A DNA stretch of 64,000 nucleotides from an uncultured bacterium (GTDB lineage: Bacteria > Chloroflexota > UBA5177 > JANWHV01): NCBI GenBank assembly GCA_963827235.1, contig CAWHAE010000009.1, forward strand, positions 512,001 to 576,000, written 5' to 3'. Position numbers and translations under genes: made by a program. Position 1 is the first letter of the stretch. The number at the start of each line of letters is the position of its first letter. Of the stretch, positions 3,673-13,113 are shown one piece after another. The notes under the pieces were generated by a model. It made no database searches. It had not been told where the DNA came from and was given only the letters and a program-made list of their open reading frames with translations.

Positions 3673-4239
3673 ATGATCGCTGAAGAACCGGTAGGCCAGG
3701 AGGAAGCGACGGTACCGGACTCCGAGTGGTGCTACCTGGTGTCGCTCGGCGGCAGCCTTTTCGCGGTGCCGGACAATAGTCGCACGGTCTTGCTCCCCTA
3801 CATCAGTGGCGTTCCCACCATTACCCCCCTGCCCAAAGGCCTCGTCCCCGCCTACGTCCTTGGTCTGATCAACGTCGCGCAGCACGGTGAGCTGCTGATC
3901 GACCTGCCCCGCCTGCTTGGCCTGCGCAGCGGTCCCGTGGGACCGACGGTCGCCGAGAGCCGCCGCGTGCTGGTGATCGGCGAGTCCGTCCCACCCGAGG
4001 TCGGCGAGTATCGACTCGCCTTTGCCGTGGACTACGGCTATGAGCTGTTTCAGGTCGCCCAGGCTACGCCAAGCGTGTCCCATCCGCTCGGCTCGTTCAT
4101 CACCTCGATAGTCGAGACGCCCCATGGAGAGGCAGCCAGGCTGGATATGGAAGAGGTCTGTAACGCAGCGCTCAAGGATATGGGAGCCGAGCGACTGTGG
4201 AATCAGCCAGCGCGTATTCATGATGAGGTAGATGAATAG
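3673..4239 (+). CDS. CheW-like (PilI-like) coupling protein
   Basis: RBS AGGAG; ITPLP..VPAYVLGLINV...LIDLPRLLGL and LAFAVD motifs typical of CheW. Confidence 0.8.
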   Translation: MIAEEPVGQEEATVPDSEWCYLVSLGGSLFAVPDNSRTVLLPYISGVPTITPLPKGLVPAYVLGLINVAQHGELLIDLPRLLGLRSGPVGPTVAESRRVLVIGESVPPEVGEYRLAFAVDYGYELFQVAQATPSVSHPLGSFITSIVETPHGEAARLDMEEVCNAALKDMGAERLWNQPARIHDEVDE

Positions 4240-4586
4240 ATAGGGCGATTACCGCGATTAGCACGGTTCTTGGCTCCGGTCAGACTGATGACACAATTGT
4301 GGGGTGGTACCAATAGGCTATGTCGTAGCAGGAGGCAGCGGACTATACTGGGCTACGCGGGCGTATGCGCGTTTTTTGCAGTCCTGCCCCTCGTGTAGCA
4401 GGCATGGTGCGCCCGGCAAAACGTTCTGAGATCTCGAAGCCTTTCTCCTTGGAGCCAATGCTACCAGGAGATAGGTTGCACATCACGAAAGCTGGCTCGA
4501 GGATACGCCGACGATCAGAGGGTTAAGAGAGTCGAAGGGGAGCACGCGCCGGGGAGGCGCACCCGGATACCACGATTGGAGGACCG

Positions 4587-5741
4587 ATGTTAGCAACCCT
4601 ATTCGTTATCGTTCTCATAGCGATTCTCGCGCTGGCTATCTGGATGTACGCCACGAGGAGGATCCGGGAGAGCGTCGAGCAGAGTGAAGCGCAGATGCGC
4701 GAGAAGTCCGAAGCGCTGGCGGAAGACATTGTCGCCGTATCGCAGGCTTTGGCAAACGCCCGAGAGGGCGATCTCACGGTGCAGGTGCCGGATAGCGAGT
4801 CCGAAGTAGGGCTCCTCTCCCTCTCTCTCAACGGCCTGATCAACGACTACGGGCAGATCGTGGGCGGCATCATTCACGCCTCCCAAGCAGTCCAGGAAGG
4901 CGCGGCCCGCGTAGACGAGGGCGTGCGGCGTATCGTGGACGTAGCGACGAGCCAGGCTGAGTCGGTCGCCCAGGTAGCTTCGAGTGTCGACGTCGTGGCC
5001 TCCTCCGCCGTGGACGTGCAGCATGACACCGAGACGGCAACCACCCTGGCGGCAAACTCGCGCCTCGCCGTGAACTCCGGCCAGGAATCCGTGGGCCGCA
5101 TCGCGGAGGCCGTCGACGCTATCAAGGAAGCGGCTATCGGCACCACACGCGAGTTCAAGCGCCTGCAGGAAGACTCGATCCGACTGACCGCCCTCGTGGC
5201 ATCGGTCAAGAGCAACGCCGAGAACCTCGACATGCAGGCCGCGAACGCCACCCTCGAAGCCCGCCACCTGGGCACGGAATCCGGCTCCGCGTTCGCCACC
5301 AACATCGGCCGTCTGGCCCGCCAGGCGCAGGACACGCTCGCCGACGCGGAAGGCGCGGTCCGCAGTGTGGTAACGTCCATCGACGAGGTCAACCGGCGTA
5401 TCGAGCGCATTTCGGAACAGGTACGGCGCGGCGTCGAGGAAGTGCGCACCGTGCGCACCACGTTCGATCAGATCACCCAGACCAACACTTCGCTGGTACA
5501 GTTCATCGACAACGTGGCCGATGCGGCCGGTGCCCAGGCGCACTCCGCCCAGCAGGCTGCACGGTCGATCGGCGAAATCGCCCAGGTGTTCGAGCAGTTC
5601 ACCGAGCTGCTGATTACCTCCGGCGACGAGATTGCGAACATGCGCCTCGTCGTAGCCGGTTTGCGCGAGTCGGTCGCCGATCTCAAGGTAAGCCCCGAGG
5701 TCGATCGTAGACCTGCTTTGTCCGCGGAAAGCGCGGCATGA
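4587..5741 (+). CDS. Divergent methyl-accepting chemotaxis protein (single TM, HAMP, signalling domain; no sensory domain)
   Basis: RBS GGAGG; N-terminal TM; HAMP (GDLTVQVP...EVGLLSLSLNGL); heptad MA domain with degenerate tip NAENLDMQAANATLEARHLG. Confidence 0.85.
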   Translation: MLATLFVIVLIAILALAIWMYATRRIRESVEQSEAQMREKSEALAEDIVAVSQALANAREGDLTVQVPDSESEVGLLSLSLNGLINDYGQIVGGIIHASQAVQEGAARVDEGVRRIVDVATSQAESVAQVASSVDVVASSAVDVQHDTETATTLAANSRLAVNSGQESVGRIAEAVDAIKEAAIGTTREFKRLQEDSIRLTALVASVKSNAENLDMQAANATLEARHLGTESGSAFATNIGRLARQAQDTLADAEGAVRSVVTSIDEVNRRIERISEQVRRGVEEVRTVRTTFDQITQTNTSLVQFIDNVADAAGAQAHSAQQAARSIGEIAQVFEQFTELLITSGDEIANMRLVVAGLRESVADLKVSPEVDRRPALSAESAA

Positions 5742-6427
5742 ACGCCACAGAGCTGCTCGCGCAGGGCGGAGAGCGTGATTCAACGTCCGCCGATCCCGTG
5801 CTCAGCCACCTATTGGAGCGGATGCTCGAGGCGAGCCAGGGCAACGCCGACCAGTTGATCGGCGCCGTGCAGCGGGTGACGCGCGAGCTGTCCTCGCTCA
5901 CCTTCAATTTCAACGGGCACGCCATTCGCTCCGGCATACGCAGCGCTGAGCTGCAGGCTCTCGACCATCAGCTCGACGAGGCGAGCTCCGTGCTCAATCG
6001 CACCGTCTTCGATCTGCAGCAGCGTCTGCTTCGCGACAGCCAAACCTTGCAGCCGCTCACGCGCATCTTCGAGGTCGTCGATCTCGAAGATGAGCGACCG
6101 GCACCTCTACGGCTGCGCGAGCGGATTGATGGCTACTGCGAGGCGCTCGAGCGGGAGTACGAGGGCATCCGCGAGACCCTGGCGGCGTTGAGCTTCCGCC
6201 TGGCGCTGATGGGCAACAACATCGAGATCGCGGCCTGCCGGGCCGGCAGCGCGGATGTCTCCGCGCCCGTCGATCTCTTCTGCGTGATGGCCAACCAGCT
6301 CCGCTTACTGGCCGACCGCTTGAGAAACGCTACCGCCGATCTGCGCATCTTCCAGCAGTCGCAGAACGGCTATGCCGAGTCACTTCGGGTGACCCTGGCC
6401 AACTACAGTCGGGGGACGGCAGCGTGA
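5738..6427 (+). CDS. Short soluble MCP-tip-like helical protein
   Basis: LALMGNNIEIAACRAG...FCVMANQLRLLA resembles the MCP hairpin LLALNAAIEAARAG...FAVVADEVRKLA; ATGA and GTGA overlaps with neighbours. Confidence 0.65.
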   Translation: MNATELLAQGGERDSTSADPVLSHLLERMLEASQGNADQLIGAVQRVTRELSSLTFNFNGHAIRSGIRSAELQALDHQLDEASSVLNRTVFDLQQRLLRDSQTLQPLTRIFEVVDLEDERPAPLRLRERIDGYCEALEREYEGIRETLAALSFRLALMGNNIEIAACRAGSADVSAPVDLFCVMANQLRLLADRLRNATADLRIFQQSQNGYAESLRVTLANYSRGTAA

Positions 6428-11538: not shown

Positions 11539-12045
11539 ATGAACAGCATGGCTGGGTCAGGCCCCGAGCGGCAAAGAATCCTAATCGTCGAAGACTCGAA
11601 GACGCACCGCCGCAACCTTCGCGACGCCCTTGCAGAGGAGTATGAGCTGCACTGGGCGATCAACGCGCGAGATGCTCTTGCCCTTGCCTTCACCAAGCGG
11701 CCCAACTTGATCCTGCTCGACATCAATATCGAGCCACCGCCAACAGACGAGGTCGACAAGGAGGGCAATCCCATACTGGGCAAGAATATCAGCGGTCTGG
11801 AAGTCTGCCGGCAGCTGAAGAAGAGCATTCTGAAGGACACGCCGATTATCGTGCTCACCGCGTCCAAAGGATTCATTCCCAGAATCAAAGGCAAGCTCGC
11901 GCATGCTAATGAGTACCTCACAAAGCCTATCGAGACGCAGCAGCTGCTTGACTTCATCTATAAATACCTGGGTAGCCCGCGTGTTCGAGGCCGGCTCGAC
12001 AAGATCGAGAGGGACTACGGCGAGCGTGCTGCGCAATCACGCTAG
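11539..12045 (+). CDS. Single-domain response regulator (PilG/PatA-REC-like)
   Basis: ILIVEDS, ILLDIN, PIIVLTASKGFIPRIKGKLAHANEYLTKP; RBS AAGGAG before ATG 11539. Confidence 0.85.
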   Translation: MNSMAGSGPERQRILIVEDSKTHRRNLRDALAEEYELHWAINARDALALAFTKRPNLILLDINIEPPPTDEVDKEGNPILGKNISGLEVCRQLKKSILKDTPIIVLTASKGFIPRIKGKLAHANEYLTKPIETQQLLDFIYKYLGSPRVRGRLDKIERDYGERAAQSR

Positions 12046-12096
12046 CACGTTCCTGTGCGAGCGTGGCCCAACGAGCAACAAGAAGTGTGATCCCGT

Positions 12097-13113
12097 ATGA
12101 AACTCTTTGGTCGCCGGTCGCACGGCGGGAGCGCCGACCTGGCGCGCATCGCCTCGTTCGAGAACCTGGCAGAGCAGCAGAAAGAGGTCGAGGACGAAGA
12201 CCGGCCGAACTCGCAGCCGCAGATCCGGGTGCTCAGCGATGAGGAGTTGTTCGGTAAAGGCGATACCGGTCCGGGGCACGATGGCCCCGCCGGTGCCCGG
12301 GACGCGGAGCAGTTCAGGCCGCTGACGGATGACATGCCCGCGGCACGTCCGTCTTCTCTCGGCTTGCGCTCGCTCACGTCGATCTCCGGCGCAGGCGTGC
12401 CGGCTGATCTGGAGATGACGTCCGAGAGACTGGACGACACTGGATCGGAAGCCGGTTGGGTCAAGAGCGGCCGTGGATCGCTCGCGACGAGCGGTGACGC
12501 GCCAGCCATCATTGGTGCGGACATCCTGATCGGCGGAGAAGAAGCAGATCTGGTGCCGCTCATTCCAGATACCAAGCCGGAGGCCGAGAGCGCGGATCTC
12601 GATGACGAGACCTCTGCCGCCGCGGCCGTCGACGCGCTGCGAGGAGCCTGCGATTTGCTGGTCGATCGCATTCAGCGCATGCGCGCTTTACGTGACGGCG
12701 CGCGCTTCATATCCGCGATGATTTCAGTGGTGACTGAGCTCGACGCCAAGTACGCCGAGGACTGGGGCATTGTGCGCCGCAACGGCCTCGAGGAAGTGCT
12801 CGACGACGTGCGTGCCGCCGTTGCCGAGGGAGATCGCTTCATTCTGGAATCGCTCGAGAACGGCCAGGGCGGCATGACCGACGAAGCCTTCGTGCGCGAT
12901 CTCAAGACCGTTGCGATGAAGGACCGGCCCCGGATCATCGCCGAATATACGATCTTCCTTGTGTTTGTCTATCGCTGCGTGCTTCTCCAGTACCTGCGCC
13001 CGCTCGAGCAGGACGCCGGTCGCCTGAATGAGATGATGAGCAGGCTCGACTACCTCATCGATGGCGTGCGCGAAATCCTCATTCAGCACGTCAACGCCCA
13101 CGTCCAGGGTTAA
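12097..13113 (+). CDS. Hypothetical protein (acidic low-complexity N-half, helical C-domain), last gene of the chemosensory cluster
   Basis: Long ORF with genome-like codon usage, co-oriented 52 bp after the PilG-like gene. Confidence 0.7.
   Translation: MKLFGRRSHGGSADLARIASFENLAEQQKEVEDEDRPNSQPQIRVLSDEELFGKGDTGPGHDGPAGARDAEQFRPLTDDMPAARPSSLGLRSLTSISGAGVPADLEMTSERLDDTGSEAGWVKSGRGSLATSGDAPAIIGADILIGGEEADLVPLIPDTKPEAESADLDDETSAAAAVDALRGACDLLVDRIQRMRALRDGARFISAMISVVTELDAKYAEDWGIVRRNGLEEVLDDVRAAVAEGDRFILESLENGQGGMTDEAFVRDLKTVAMKDRPRIIAEYTIFLVFVYRCVLLQYLRPLEQDAGRLNEMMSRLDYLIDGVREILIQHVNAHVQG

Follow-up and report, generated by a model that had tools for sequence, protein, structure and literature searches.

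A chemosensory operon in an uncultured Chloroflexota genus combines a CheA kinase carrying a DICT domain with a receptor that lacks its ectodomain

Organization of the operon

The stretch of DNA analysed here (the window, 64 kb) potentially encodes a chemosensory pathway in which neither MCP-like protein carries a ligand-binding domain. How does a signal enter such a pathway? The original prediction had placed the input in the kinase, by way of a DICT-like domain inside CheA.

The region from 3583 to 13113 (forward strand) forms a single operon of closely spaced genes, in the order cheW, MCP, X (229 aa), CheA (1358 aa), a CheW-like gene (128 aa), two receiver genes and a 338-aa gene. Start and stop codons overlap by 4 bp at three junctions (ATGA at 5738, GTGA at 6424 and ATGA at 10497), and the genes joined there are translationally coupled. 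This order, its coordinates and the three overlaps are as originally predicted. Synteny in related genomes had been proposed as a check, and the operon order was found conserved, far above chance, in three of them (G004, G003 and G001) and in metagenome contigs, some of the orthologous operons having DICT and some not. As predicted, neither CheR nor CheB was found within the window; the three CheR and four CheB matches of the genome all lie outside it.

The coupling protein gene cheW (3583..4239; Pfam CheW 24.4 bits, cut-off 23.5) likely starts at 3673 (Met31), where its orthologues begin to align. It is one of the two weakest among the 14 CheW matches of the genome, and its orthologues, found in 10 loci, share 42-80% identity with it. 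The 128-aa ORF predicted to be a second cheW is present (10497..10883), but its identity as a CheW is weak: it has no Pfam match, and hhalign against the genome's own CheW domains gave an E of 2.6e-4 with a probability of 42%. CheW clusters make up 21 of its 30 ESM-Atlas language-model neighbours (score 0.93). The gene was found in four related loci (58-80% identity) and weakly in L066, and is absent at L004/G003, L065 and L068-L072. At L004/G003 and the DICT-less L068-L072, the space downstream of cheA, up to the following gene, is too small to hold it.

Protein X (5738..6427) is a soluble MCP-tip-like protein with no match in Pfam or NCBIfam, and each of its 55 homologous clusters is unnamed or hypothetical. 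Its tip motif (N161/E163/I164/A166/A169) is invariant, and by hhalign X is related to the tips of the MCPs encoded in this genome (E 1.9e-4 to 6.5e-4). The structure model (pLDDT 87, pTM 0.80) has four helices of about 38-49 residues, and of its pair of hairpins only one reaches a significant match to the tip motif (E 1.9e-4 vs 0.11). X is predicted to fold from one chain into a four-helix bundle that carries the receptor tip motif.

Two stand-alone receivers follow CheA and the CheW-like gene. The first (155 aa, 10965..11432; Response_reg 53 bits) has an N-terminal extension of about 30 aa and is conserved in 13 of 13 related loci (alignment A5). The second (198 aa, 11449..12045; Response_reg 62 bits in two stretches), whose start is likely at 11539, has a conserved insertion directly after the phospho-acceptor Asp, and the first gene of a paralogous cluster has an insertion of the same type. 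The 338-aa protein (12097..13113) is conserved in its C-terminal half (residues ~130-338) and has no Pfam or NCBIfam match; its homologues fall in 42 clusters, all unnamed or hypothetical, the named ones coming from Chloroflexota. Its gene follows the receivers in all five DICT-bearing related loci and was not detected in the DICT-less related loci.

The hybrid CheA and its DICT domain

The hybrid CheA (6424..10500) contains, in this order, an N-terminal domain, two Hpt domains, DICT, a long P3, P4, P5 and a receiver (Pfam: Hpt twice, DICT, HATPase_c, CheW and Response_reg). NCBIfam CheA models cover residues 840-1209 (242.6 and 177.6 bits), and the catalytic N, G1, F and G2 boxes are all present. 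The N-terminal domain (residues 1-200, 6424..7023; 37-77% identity) has no Pfam or NCBIfam family match and is conserved in orthologues both with and without DICT. It is followed by the Hpt (P1) domains (7036..7803, in two stretches), in which the HT[IL]KG motifs around phospho-His220 and His396 are conserved (alignment A1). The "multi-Hpt CheA-REC" of the original prediction is therefore a hybrid CheA with a receiver, and the number of its Hpt domains can be given as two. The extended P3 coiled coil, P4 and P5 (8704..10053, from Pfam and alignment) include HATPase_c at residues 941-1078 and a CheW domain at 1088-1210 (21.5 bits, under the cut-off), and the invariant alignment block starts at residue 768. 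The C-terminal receiver (10111..10446; Response_reg 97 bits) has the DD, D, T/S and K positions. Along CheA, dN/dS against G004 ranges from 0.01 to 0.35, which indicates purifying selection; DICT evolves faster than the P3-P4-P5 core (0.21 vs 0.08).

The DICT domain with its C-terminal helix (residues 562-723, 8107..8592; PF10069) lies between the second Hpt and the dimerisation helix. Pro/Ala-rich linkers of poor conservation and low pLDDT flank it on both sides (7864-8100 and 8602-8703). It scored 27.1 bits against a Pfam cut-off of 23.8, and 32.2 bits in the genome scan, in which it was the single occurrence. What had been called "DICT-like" is a genuine DICT, and the sole recognised sensor-class domain in the operon. 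Among 1.84 billion representatives searched, 42 matched at E<=1e-3 (best 4e-10), 39 of them non-CheA proteins, and PF10069 was present in 26 of the 28 non-CheA relatives scanned. In these relatives DICT stands N-terminal to HisKA-HATPase kinases, cyclases or GAF proteins, or accounts for the greater part of a short protein; the N-terminal site is a position typical of input domains. The CheA DICT shares the core family positions, without the Trp that is conserved in the EWF motif of the family, and at the sequence level the assignment is solid. The base of the wider protein tree lacks resolution, and the DICT-less P0015, on a long branch, is nested among DICT-bearing proteins (bootstrap 83-87%).

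In the structure model of DICT (pLDDT ~90), the top 23 structural matches all belong to the PLD superfamily, the best being TrmB (Z 10.6, rmsd 3.8, 128 residues), TrmBL2 (9.7) and FAM83 DUF1669 (9.0-9.1). The HxK catalytic motif is absent from the fold. The modelled fold is PLD-like and non-catalytic, nearest to the sugar-binding domain of TrmB.

The position of DICT could also be read in another way, which we regard as unlikely but still live: as a tethered docking module that replaces a missing P2 and raises the local concentration of a receiver or partner near the Hpt domains. CheA has no match to P2 or a CheY-binding domain in Pfam, DICT occupies the P2 site between P1 and P3 on flexible linkers like those of P2, and the downstream receivers are unusually conserved, the 198-aa one being 84-93% identical across DICT-bearing loci (62-73% in other loci). 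The modelled fold, however, is PLD-like and not that of P2, the 26 DICT relatives hold the domain in the place of an input domain, and DICT-less orthologues have the same two receivers, evidently functional without it.

Loss of the receptor ectodomain

The MCP (4587..5741) consists of one membrane helix (its single hydrophobic helix, residues 1-22), a HAMP domain (21.2 bits, under the Pfam cut-off) and a signalling hairpin (MCPsignal 36.4 bits, cut-off 34.6). Its Met1 aligns with residue 335, in the second membrane helix, of the 715-aa L004 orthologue. Orthologous receptors have a dCache-like ectodomain of about 300 aa, homologous between L004 and L068 (E 4e-8) and present also in G001. In this genome neither the MCP nor X has a ligand-binding domain, in agreement with the original prediction.

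The ectodomain is ancestral, and its loss is restricted to the sub-lineage to which this genome belongs. All three ectodomain-less loci have a DICT-bearing CheA and form one clade (support 99/98), while in L004/G003 and G001 a DICT-bearing CheA stands beside a complete dCache-like receptor. The loss is recent and was observed exclusively at loci whose CheA already had DICT; DICT gain followed by ectodomain loss happened in one event (n=1). Since two DICT-bearing relatives keep the full receptor, DICT is not simply a replacement for receptor sensing.

That coexistence in G003 and G001 is also what would be expected if the receptor were still the point of signal entry, either sensing the state of the membrane, or a membrane protein that partners it, by its membrane helix and HAMP, or taking part in mixed arrays with other receptors, with DICT as a secondary modulator. 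The receptor keeps its HAMP and membrane anchor, identity between the three truncated orthologues is 84-93%, and the genome has over 20 further MCPs as well as two paralogous clusters with the same gene order, Cache receptors and no DICT. Yet the truncated receptor has no remaining sensor domain, a simple pattern search found no methylation consensus in it, and the operon has no CheR or CheB. In addition, the tip, CheW and P5 of the cluster diverge further than any of their counterparts in the genome (36, 24 and 21 bits vs 82-145 and 51-140 bits in canonical systems), which argues for an insulated complex rather than one sharing the some 20 canonical MCPs. Signal entry through the receptor seems improbable. 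It is most improbable that the ectodomain deletion disabled the pathway and that its genes are heading for loss: the deletion is recent, the CheW-like gene is patchy and no orthologue of CheA or X was found in the related genome G002 (~92% complete), but all nine genes are intact with their overlaps kept, CheA has the low dN/dS given above and conservation of the truncated receptor extends across three diverged loci.

Proposed working of the system

Entry of the signal through DICT has about an even chance of being the right account of what we take to be a working, lineage-specific chemosensory pathway in an uncultured Chloroflexota genus, with a hybrid CheA-receiver of the broad Tfp/ACF type. 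The truncated receptor, X, CheW and P5 would form the core complex, in which the receptor and X would mainly hold CheA in an array-like state. A small molecule or a partner protein in the cytoplasm would be the signal that binds DICT, and this binding would change CheA autophosphorylation or access to the Hpt domains. A rigid helical link between DICT and kinase, as in ordinary sensor kinases, is unlikely given the Pro/Ala-rich, low-pLDDT linkers. The phosphoryl group would pass both to the CheA receiver, in the role of a relay or a sink, and to the pair of stand-alone receivers, which may act on some target, possibly the 338-aa protein or the Tad pilus. Relatives that have the dCache-like ectodomain would combine the inputs of receptor and kinase; in this sub-lineage, deletion of the outside input would have left the kinase-borne DICT as the only recognisable sensor.

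The idea of sensing through the kinase gains from the real DICT and the ectodomain-less receptor and loses from the two DICT-bearing relatives that keep the ectodomain, from the flexible flanks and faster evolution of DICT, and from the weakly resolved base of the protein tree; it is plausible, with chances about even. The companion claim that the MCPs are reduced to scaffolds fits the missing ectodomain, but a scaffold-only role goes further than that, and the receptor may still transmit something, since its HAMP is retained.

Comparison with known systems

The original prediction also assigned the system to the type IV pilus class. As in the Pil-Chp/Tfp systems (Pseudomonas ChpA; cyanobacterial Pix/Tax), its hybrid CheA lacks a P2, contains more than one Hpt and ends in a receiver, and stand-alone receivers and two CheW-type genes accompany the kinase; two orthologues are labelled "ChpA" by JGI. 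The cyanobacterial Pix/Tax systems are not known to include CheR or CheB, and neither is in this operon. A long dimerisation region like that of this CheA is reported in a survey for Chloroflexota and cyanobacterial Tfp CheAs (PMC10782961). In the tree of the CheA core, however, the kinase falls in its own clade with two paralogues, apart from the sampled ChpA and cyanobacterial kinases. The genome search, which covered type IV and Tad pili as had been proposed along with other MCPs and CheR/CheB, found one Tad locus only, and no type IVa pilus genes, no PilM above the cut-off and no second pilus ATPase. The type IV pilus label is not supported by these results, and DICT, X and the sensor-less receptor are further differences from Pil-Chp/Tfp.

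The ACF-class systems occur in the same phylum and have the Hpt(-Hpt)-P3-P4-P5-REC order in common with this CheA. In table S2 of the survey, CheA-receiver proteins of this class from Chloroflexales/Thermomicrobiales are 739-1032 aa long with no DICT listed, and their dimerisation domains are 106-137 aa, with one of 63 (PMC10782961). Chloroflexales are described in another study as having only Tad pili and as showing chemoreceptor-like arrays by cryo-ET (PMC7332563).

The extra TMX of Azospirillum CheA1 is an N-terminal membrane domain, whereas DICT is cytoplasmic, of the sensor class and placed between P1 and P3. As a CheA with an additional non-canonical domain, CheA1 is nevertheless a precedent (PMC8561660, PMC6759762). 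Among the domains listed in the survey of 13,673 CheAs, which presents CheA as having no input domain, DICT does not appear (PMC10782961). The original claim of an architecture unlike the described classes is supported in this respect for DICT in CheA; the gene order recurs in the two paralogous clusters.

DICT itself (PF10069) is shared with DICT-HisKA-HATPase kinases, DICT-cyclases and DICT-GAF proteins, and a review describes DICT domains as having no known signal (PMC8846402). In the known DICT kinases the domain is N-terminal, before the phospho-accepting DHp, whereas here it is internal, after two Hpt and before P3, and bounded by flexible linkers. The spacing from DICT to the dimerisation domain is similar in the kinases (about 80 residues in P0191, P0193, P0198, P0203 and P0214 vs about 85-90 in this CheA). 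TrmB sets a precedent for a non-catalytic PLD-like sensor, but a common fold does not prove a common ligand: sequence identity of DICT to TrmB and other PLD-fold domains is 6-13%, and in TrmB a second subdomain, not present in the CheA DICT, assists sugar binding.

For X, the nearest likeness is to engineered single-chain chemoreceptors and receptor "foldon" mimics, designed to imitate the kinase-control tip of a receptor dimer (PMC4692393; bioRxiv 10.1101/2020.03.27.011866). X is predicted to share this tip and the arrangement of two hairpins in one four-helix chain; it differs in being natural and short, with a turn 5 residues longer, and its binding to CheA or CheW is putative. Against these known systems, what is new here is a CheA with an inserted DICT sensor-type domain together with a sub-lineage-specific loss of the receptor ectodomain, and, in X, a predicted natural single-chain bundle bearing a receptor tip.

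Organization of the chemosensory operon

The operon lies on the forward strand of the window at 3583-13113 and comprises nine consecutive genes by count, eight of which are itemised here. The first, cheW (3583-4239; CheW 24.4 bits, cut-off 23.5), is followed by the gene for a 384-aa MCP (4587-5741; MCPsignal 36.4 bits, cut-off 34.6) with a weak HAMP match and a single hydrophobic helix at residues 1-22. Then come a 229-aa protein without family match, here called X (5738-6427), and a 1358-aa hybrid CheA (6424-10500) with Hpt, DICT (PF10069), HATPase_c, CheW-like P5 and Response_reg domains. 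The distal part encodes a 128-aa ORF without Pfam match (10497-10883), two stand-alone proteins with a receiver domain (10965-11432 and 11449-12045, the latter of 198 aa) and a 338-aa protein (12097-13113) with neither a Pfam nor an NCBIfam match. Coordinates and Pfam domains agree with the gene order given in the original prediction, and the three 4-bp start/stop overlaps that it proposed are real, since the junctions read ATGA, GTGA and ATGA in the sequence. It had also claimed that cheR and cheB are missing here, and the three CheR and four CheB matches of the genome indeed all fall outside the window. When synteny was checked, the same order was found in the related genomes G004, G003 and G001 and in the metagenome contigs L064-L074. 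The window covers 512001-576000 of contig C9. The genome itself measures 7.98 Mb in 21 contigs, with a completeness of 95.9% and a contamination of 9%, and the G+C content of the window DNA is ~58-68%.

A Ser/Thr protein kinase with a zinc ribbon is encoded immediately upstream of the operon (1253-3229, forward strand). It is syntenic in G004 and G003 (67-90% identity) and was not found beside the operon in the metagenome loci compared. Directly downstream, a 138-aa gene (13455-13871, forward strand) has 81-97% identity in the loci L062, L003 and L064, a conservation above that of most operon genes. Neither Pfam nor NCBIfam gave a match for it, and by eye it has a helix-turn-helix look.

The CheA kinase and its paralogues

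In Pfam searches CheA displays the order Hpt, dimerisation region, HATPase_c and CheW-like P5, with no P2 or CheY-binding match. The P5 domain scored 21.5 bits in the protein scan (below cut-off) and 26.2 bits in the genome scan (above cut-off), and NCBIfam CheA models span residues 840-1209. The protein has a pair of Hpt domains (His220 and His396), a complete C-terminal receiver (Response_reg, 97 bits) and N, G1, F and G2 boxes that are all intact. This architecture, together with the linked CheW (24.4 bits) and an MCP with a signalling domain (MCPsignal, 36.4 bits), places the operon in the Che pathway. Several Hpt domains and a C-terminal receiver without P2 are a trait of the Tfp (Pil-Chp) class, and the pathway works like a Tfp/ACF-type hybrid-CheA pathway. 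In a P4-P5 tree of 33 rows, whose references were without ACF or Ktedonobacteria and from which 7 of the 34 chosen reference proteins, with an aligned stretch below 220 residues, were left out, the window CheA and two paralogues from its own genome form one clade (100/98) apart from the sampled proteobacterial ChpA, cyanobacterial hybrid kinases and flagellar-type CheAs. The N-terminal domain of CheA, of unrecognised family, bears a C-x6-C-x-W-H-E-H motif (residues 67-80, window 6622-6663), which is kept in most orthologues and missing in the P0017-P0020 group; it could be a metal or redox site.

Two further clusters in the genome have the same order of cheW, MCP, small helical protein and CheA-REC. 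One of their receptors is an sCache-HAMP protein, the other has a HAMP and a weak dCache_1-like match, and DICT was found in neither cluster. The shared order and the single CheA clade (100/98) indicate that the module is typical of the lineage and present in three copies, of which the operon is one, rather than unique. In the paralogous cluster on contig C10 (L001), the receptor is divided between two ORFs (5750-7431) that overlap in different frames, an sCache-HAMP ORF of 426 aa and a signalling-domain ORF of 148 aa. A 356-aa ORF bearing an Hpt likewise overlaps the beginning of that cluster's CheA. Frameshifts, errors of assembly or pseudogenes may account for these features. On contig C9, outside the window (950740-961499), there is also a large canonical che cluster with two CheA-type P5 matches, two MCPs, CheR and CheB, and a single 603-aa frame containing three full CheW domains.

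A sensor-class DICT domain within CheA

Between the second Hpt and P3, residues 572-676 of CheA match DICT at 27.1 bits (Pfam gathering cut-off 23.8), and this is the sole DICT of the genome (32.2 bits in the genome scan). A search with residues 530-780 against 1.84 billion representative proteins yielded 42 matches at E<=1e-3, of which 3 were CheA-type and 39 non-CheA. Pfam scans covered 29 of the 42, one of them a CheA fragment, and PF10069 was found in 26 of the remaining 28 non-CheA relatives (E 5e-10 to 5e-22), in every case close to the N-terminus and either alone or ahead of HisKA-HATPase, cyclase or GAF. The core positions E, F-G-x-Q, S, Y, YVFG, D, P, VPL, L-x-x-E and R-x-F are common to the family and the CheA DICT, which lacks the Trp of the family EWF motif.

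In a model built from 14 orthologues, residues ~562-723 are folded, with pLDDT near 90, and Foldseek and an independent VIA search agree on a phospholipase-D-like fold. The top 23 rows of the VIA search were all of the PLD superfamily, the best being the TrmB sugar-binding domain (Z 10.6, rmsd 3.8, 128 residues). The catalytic phospholipase D members share this fold but differ in their HxK(x)4D motif: no HxK was found in CheA residues 560-726, so the domain is a non-catalytic PLD-like one. These results demonstrate that DICT is a sensor-class domain with a PLD-like fold. Compared with G004, dN/dS is 0.21 for DICT and 0.08 for the kinase core; purifying selection on DICT is thus the weaker of the two.

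The original prediction had input entering through this domain of CheA. The domain proved real and sensor-class; a simple replacement of the receptor did not hold up, and the strongest points against a kinase that has replaced its receptor are the flexible linkers around DICT and its coexistence with full receptors in relatives. The flanks (residues 481-559 and 727-760) are Pro/Ala-rich, poorly conserved and of low confidence in the model. DICT could instead be a P2-like docking module, a role compatible with such flanks in a CheA where no P2 was matched; the non-CheA relatives carry the domain ahead of kinase and cyclase domains, and we consider docking unlikely.

In the literature, a listing in a 2022 review (PMC8846402) places DICT among putative sensory domains without discernible physiological purpose. 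The abstract of a 2023 survey of 13,673 CheAs by Berry, Andrianova and Zhulin (PMC10782961) describes CheA as having no sensor or input domain. That survey ran HMMER, and HHpred on unassigned stretches; in the portions consulted, the auxiliary domains reported are P2, receiver and CheC/CheX only, and its table S2 has no DICT entry. Literature searches found no paper on a CheA-DICT fusion, and DICT as a whole word gave unrelated uses only. Relative to the publications found, a sensor-class domain within CheA is new.

DICT and the receptor ectodomain in related loci

The closest source-named homologues belong to Chloroflexi/Chloroflexota MAGs. The GTDB order consists of five genomes, all of one genus, and an orthologous CheA occurs in four of them, namely this genome, G004 (82%), G001 (71%) and G003 (64%); in G002 (~92% complete) only CheA paralogues and no orthologue were found. 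The insert of ~230 residues that carries DICT is present in 14 of 19 aligned orthologous CheAs and absent in five. By locus, DICT is present in the window, L062 (G004), L004 (G003), L003 (G001) and the metagenome contigs L064 and L065, and absent in L066 and L068-L072, while three short contigs were uninformative.

Two membrane helices around a ~300-residue ectodomain characterise the receptors of L004 (715 aa), of G001, where contig L108 has a stop-to-stop frame of 692 residues, and of L068, L070 and L072 (~695 aa), the DICT-less loci whose receptor ORFs were inspected. Of three ectodomains scanned, two gave weak dCache_1 similarity (E 0.005-0.008, below cut-off) and that of L072 gave none, and the ectodomains of L004 and L068 are homologous (E 4e-8). 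The window receptor starts at the second membrane helix of these full-length relatives and keeps one hydrophobic helix, in agreement with the earlier claim that the MCP has no ligand-binding domain. The receptor of G004 has the identical truncation. That of L064 is ~40 residues longer, and in the position of the ectodomain this contig has tandem Pro/Gln-rich repeats in several frames (L064 2846-3346), which hint at a rearrangement of the deletion site that was separate or came later.

In the locus tree (17 rows), the three truncated-receptor loci form a clade (99/98) inside the DICT-bearing clade (90/95), which is sister to the DICT-less clade. An ancestral ectodomain follows from this, with a recent loss in a lineage whose CheA already had DICT, subject to two caveats: the loss is one event only, and the wider protein tree differs. 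In its 20 rows, which leave out the truncated P0020 and do not establish a single clean gain of DICT, the base is not resolved and the DICT-less P0015 is nested among DICT-bearing proteins (83-87). The resulting natural series of relatives with ectodomain only, with both and with DICT only is also new relative to the publications found.

The loci in which DICT and a full receptor coexist speak for a further alternative, that the receptor still senses, via its membrane helix and HAMP or via mixed arrays. Like docking, the other main rival to the mechanism proposed below, it seems to us improbable. Decay of the whole system, to which the truncation might point, is opposed by intact, conserved genes and is very unlikely.

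Protein X and the 128-aa ORF

Protein X has no Pfam match, MCPsignal included, and none of its 55 homologue clusters has a Pfam domain or an informative name. Its profile matched in 4 of 401 Chloroflexota genomes sampled, all of its own genus. The invariant residues N161, E163, I164, A166 and A169 fall on the receptor tip consensus. Compared by hhalign with 20 MCP tips of its own genome, X gave E 6.5e-4 (probability 28%) as a whole and E 1.9e-4 (47%) for its C-terminal half; this alignment coincides exactly with the tip, the turn of X being 5 residues longer, and the N-terminal half takes the same register at a non-significant E of 0.11. The model of X (pLDDT 87, pTM 0.80) is a single-chain four-helix bundle (helices at 20-65, 70-107, 122-170 and 176-224). 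Foldseek gave no PDB match at E<=0.001; the best rows were designed four-helix bundles, and a Thermotoga receptor chain first appeared at E 0.089. Taken together, these features suggest that X may be a soluble imitation of the receptor-dimer tip. A simple methylation-site pattern had no match in the MCP or X, which is weak negative evidence. X is a distant relative (E 5e-5) of the 258-aa gene that occupies the corresponding position of the second cluster; a relation to the 159-aa gene of the third was rejected (E 0.05, not significant).

The 128-aa ORF is probably CheW-like. It aligned with CheW domains of its own genome over half a domain only (hhalign E 2.6e-4, probability 42%), and 21 of its 30 ESM-Atlas neighbours were CheW clusters (score 0.93, 181 common features). 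The equivalent 164-aa gene of the paralogous cluster matched CheW at E 0.0022, with no significant similarity between the two genes. The 128-aa ORF is missing from some orthologous loci.

Receivers and output

The acceptor Asp and its partner residues are present in both stand-alone receivers. Of all operon genes, that for the 198-aa receiver is the best conserved (84-93% in DICT-bearing loci). A common insertion directly behind the phospho-acceptor Asp marks this receiver (11449-12045) and its paralogue in L001 (4687-5181); the window receiver has ~17 residues there and the paralogue more, and the orthologues show the almost invariant sequence NIEPPPTD..D.(E/D)GNP. The 338-aa protein follows the receivers in DICT-bearing loci only. 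Its 42 homologue clusters are all unnamed, and its ESM-Atlas scores (<=0.82) are at noise level, with faint globin and RsbR-N leads. The protein has no similarity (E 0.52) to the 350-aa gene in the corresponding place of the paralogous cluster, which was rejected as its counterpart.

The check for pilus genes went against the original prediction of a pilus-class system: with T2SSE and PilM_2 as queries, no type IVa pilus genes were found, only a Tad locus. The sole T2SSE ATPase above cut-off lies inside an RcpC-TadA-TadB-TadC-type locus, and no PilM_2 match above cut-off was found in the genome. This sole pilus locus found lies at ~924-929 kb of contig C12 (L107, 918000-936000) and encodes an RcpC/CpaB-like protein, the T2SSE ATPase and two T2SSF genes; a LuxR-type response regulator adjoins it, followed by three large ORFs without family match. 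According to the relevant text of Gaisin et al. (PMC7332563), Tad is the only pilus type described in Chloroflexales, and this genome agrees. The genome also has flagellin genes beside a canonical che cluster.

Proposed mechanism and comparison with known systems

CheW, the anchored receptor, X and P5 would form a core complex. DICT would receive a cytoplasmic signal and alter autophosphorylation or Hpt access, and phosphoryl groups would pass to the receiver of CheA and to both stand-alone ones. We consider this the most likely mechanism, evenly poised between right and wrong. A tentative extension, which we would sooner expect to fail than to hold, is a shift of array input in this lineage, away from the transmembrane receptor and into CheA: cytoplasmic signals would act via DICT, the MCP and X, a natural single-chain mimic of the receptor-dimer tip, would only assemble the kinase and set its state, and relatives with DICT and ectodomain or with ectodomain only would be surviving intermediates.

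All implications rest on prediction; the organisms are uncultured and the proteins expressible. The working rule of the field is that CheA has no input domain and leaves all sensing to receptors, a rule to which a CheA with a genuine sensor-class domain would be a naturally occurring exception. The three states found in close relatives offer a comparative series for the movement of input sites within a pathway, and the DICT family, which has no known signal, would gain a kinase assay as read-out.

Compared with the Tfp class, whose CheA architecture it shares, the system differs in that the expected type IVa pilus machinery was not found in the genome. The predicted tip mimic X is likewise new relative to the publications found, and its nearest analogues are engineered single-chain receptors (PMC4692393; bioRxiv 10.1101/2020.03.27.011866). 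If X is truly a single-chain receptor-tip mimic, it would be a natural version of the constructs engineered for studies of kinase control.
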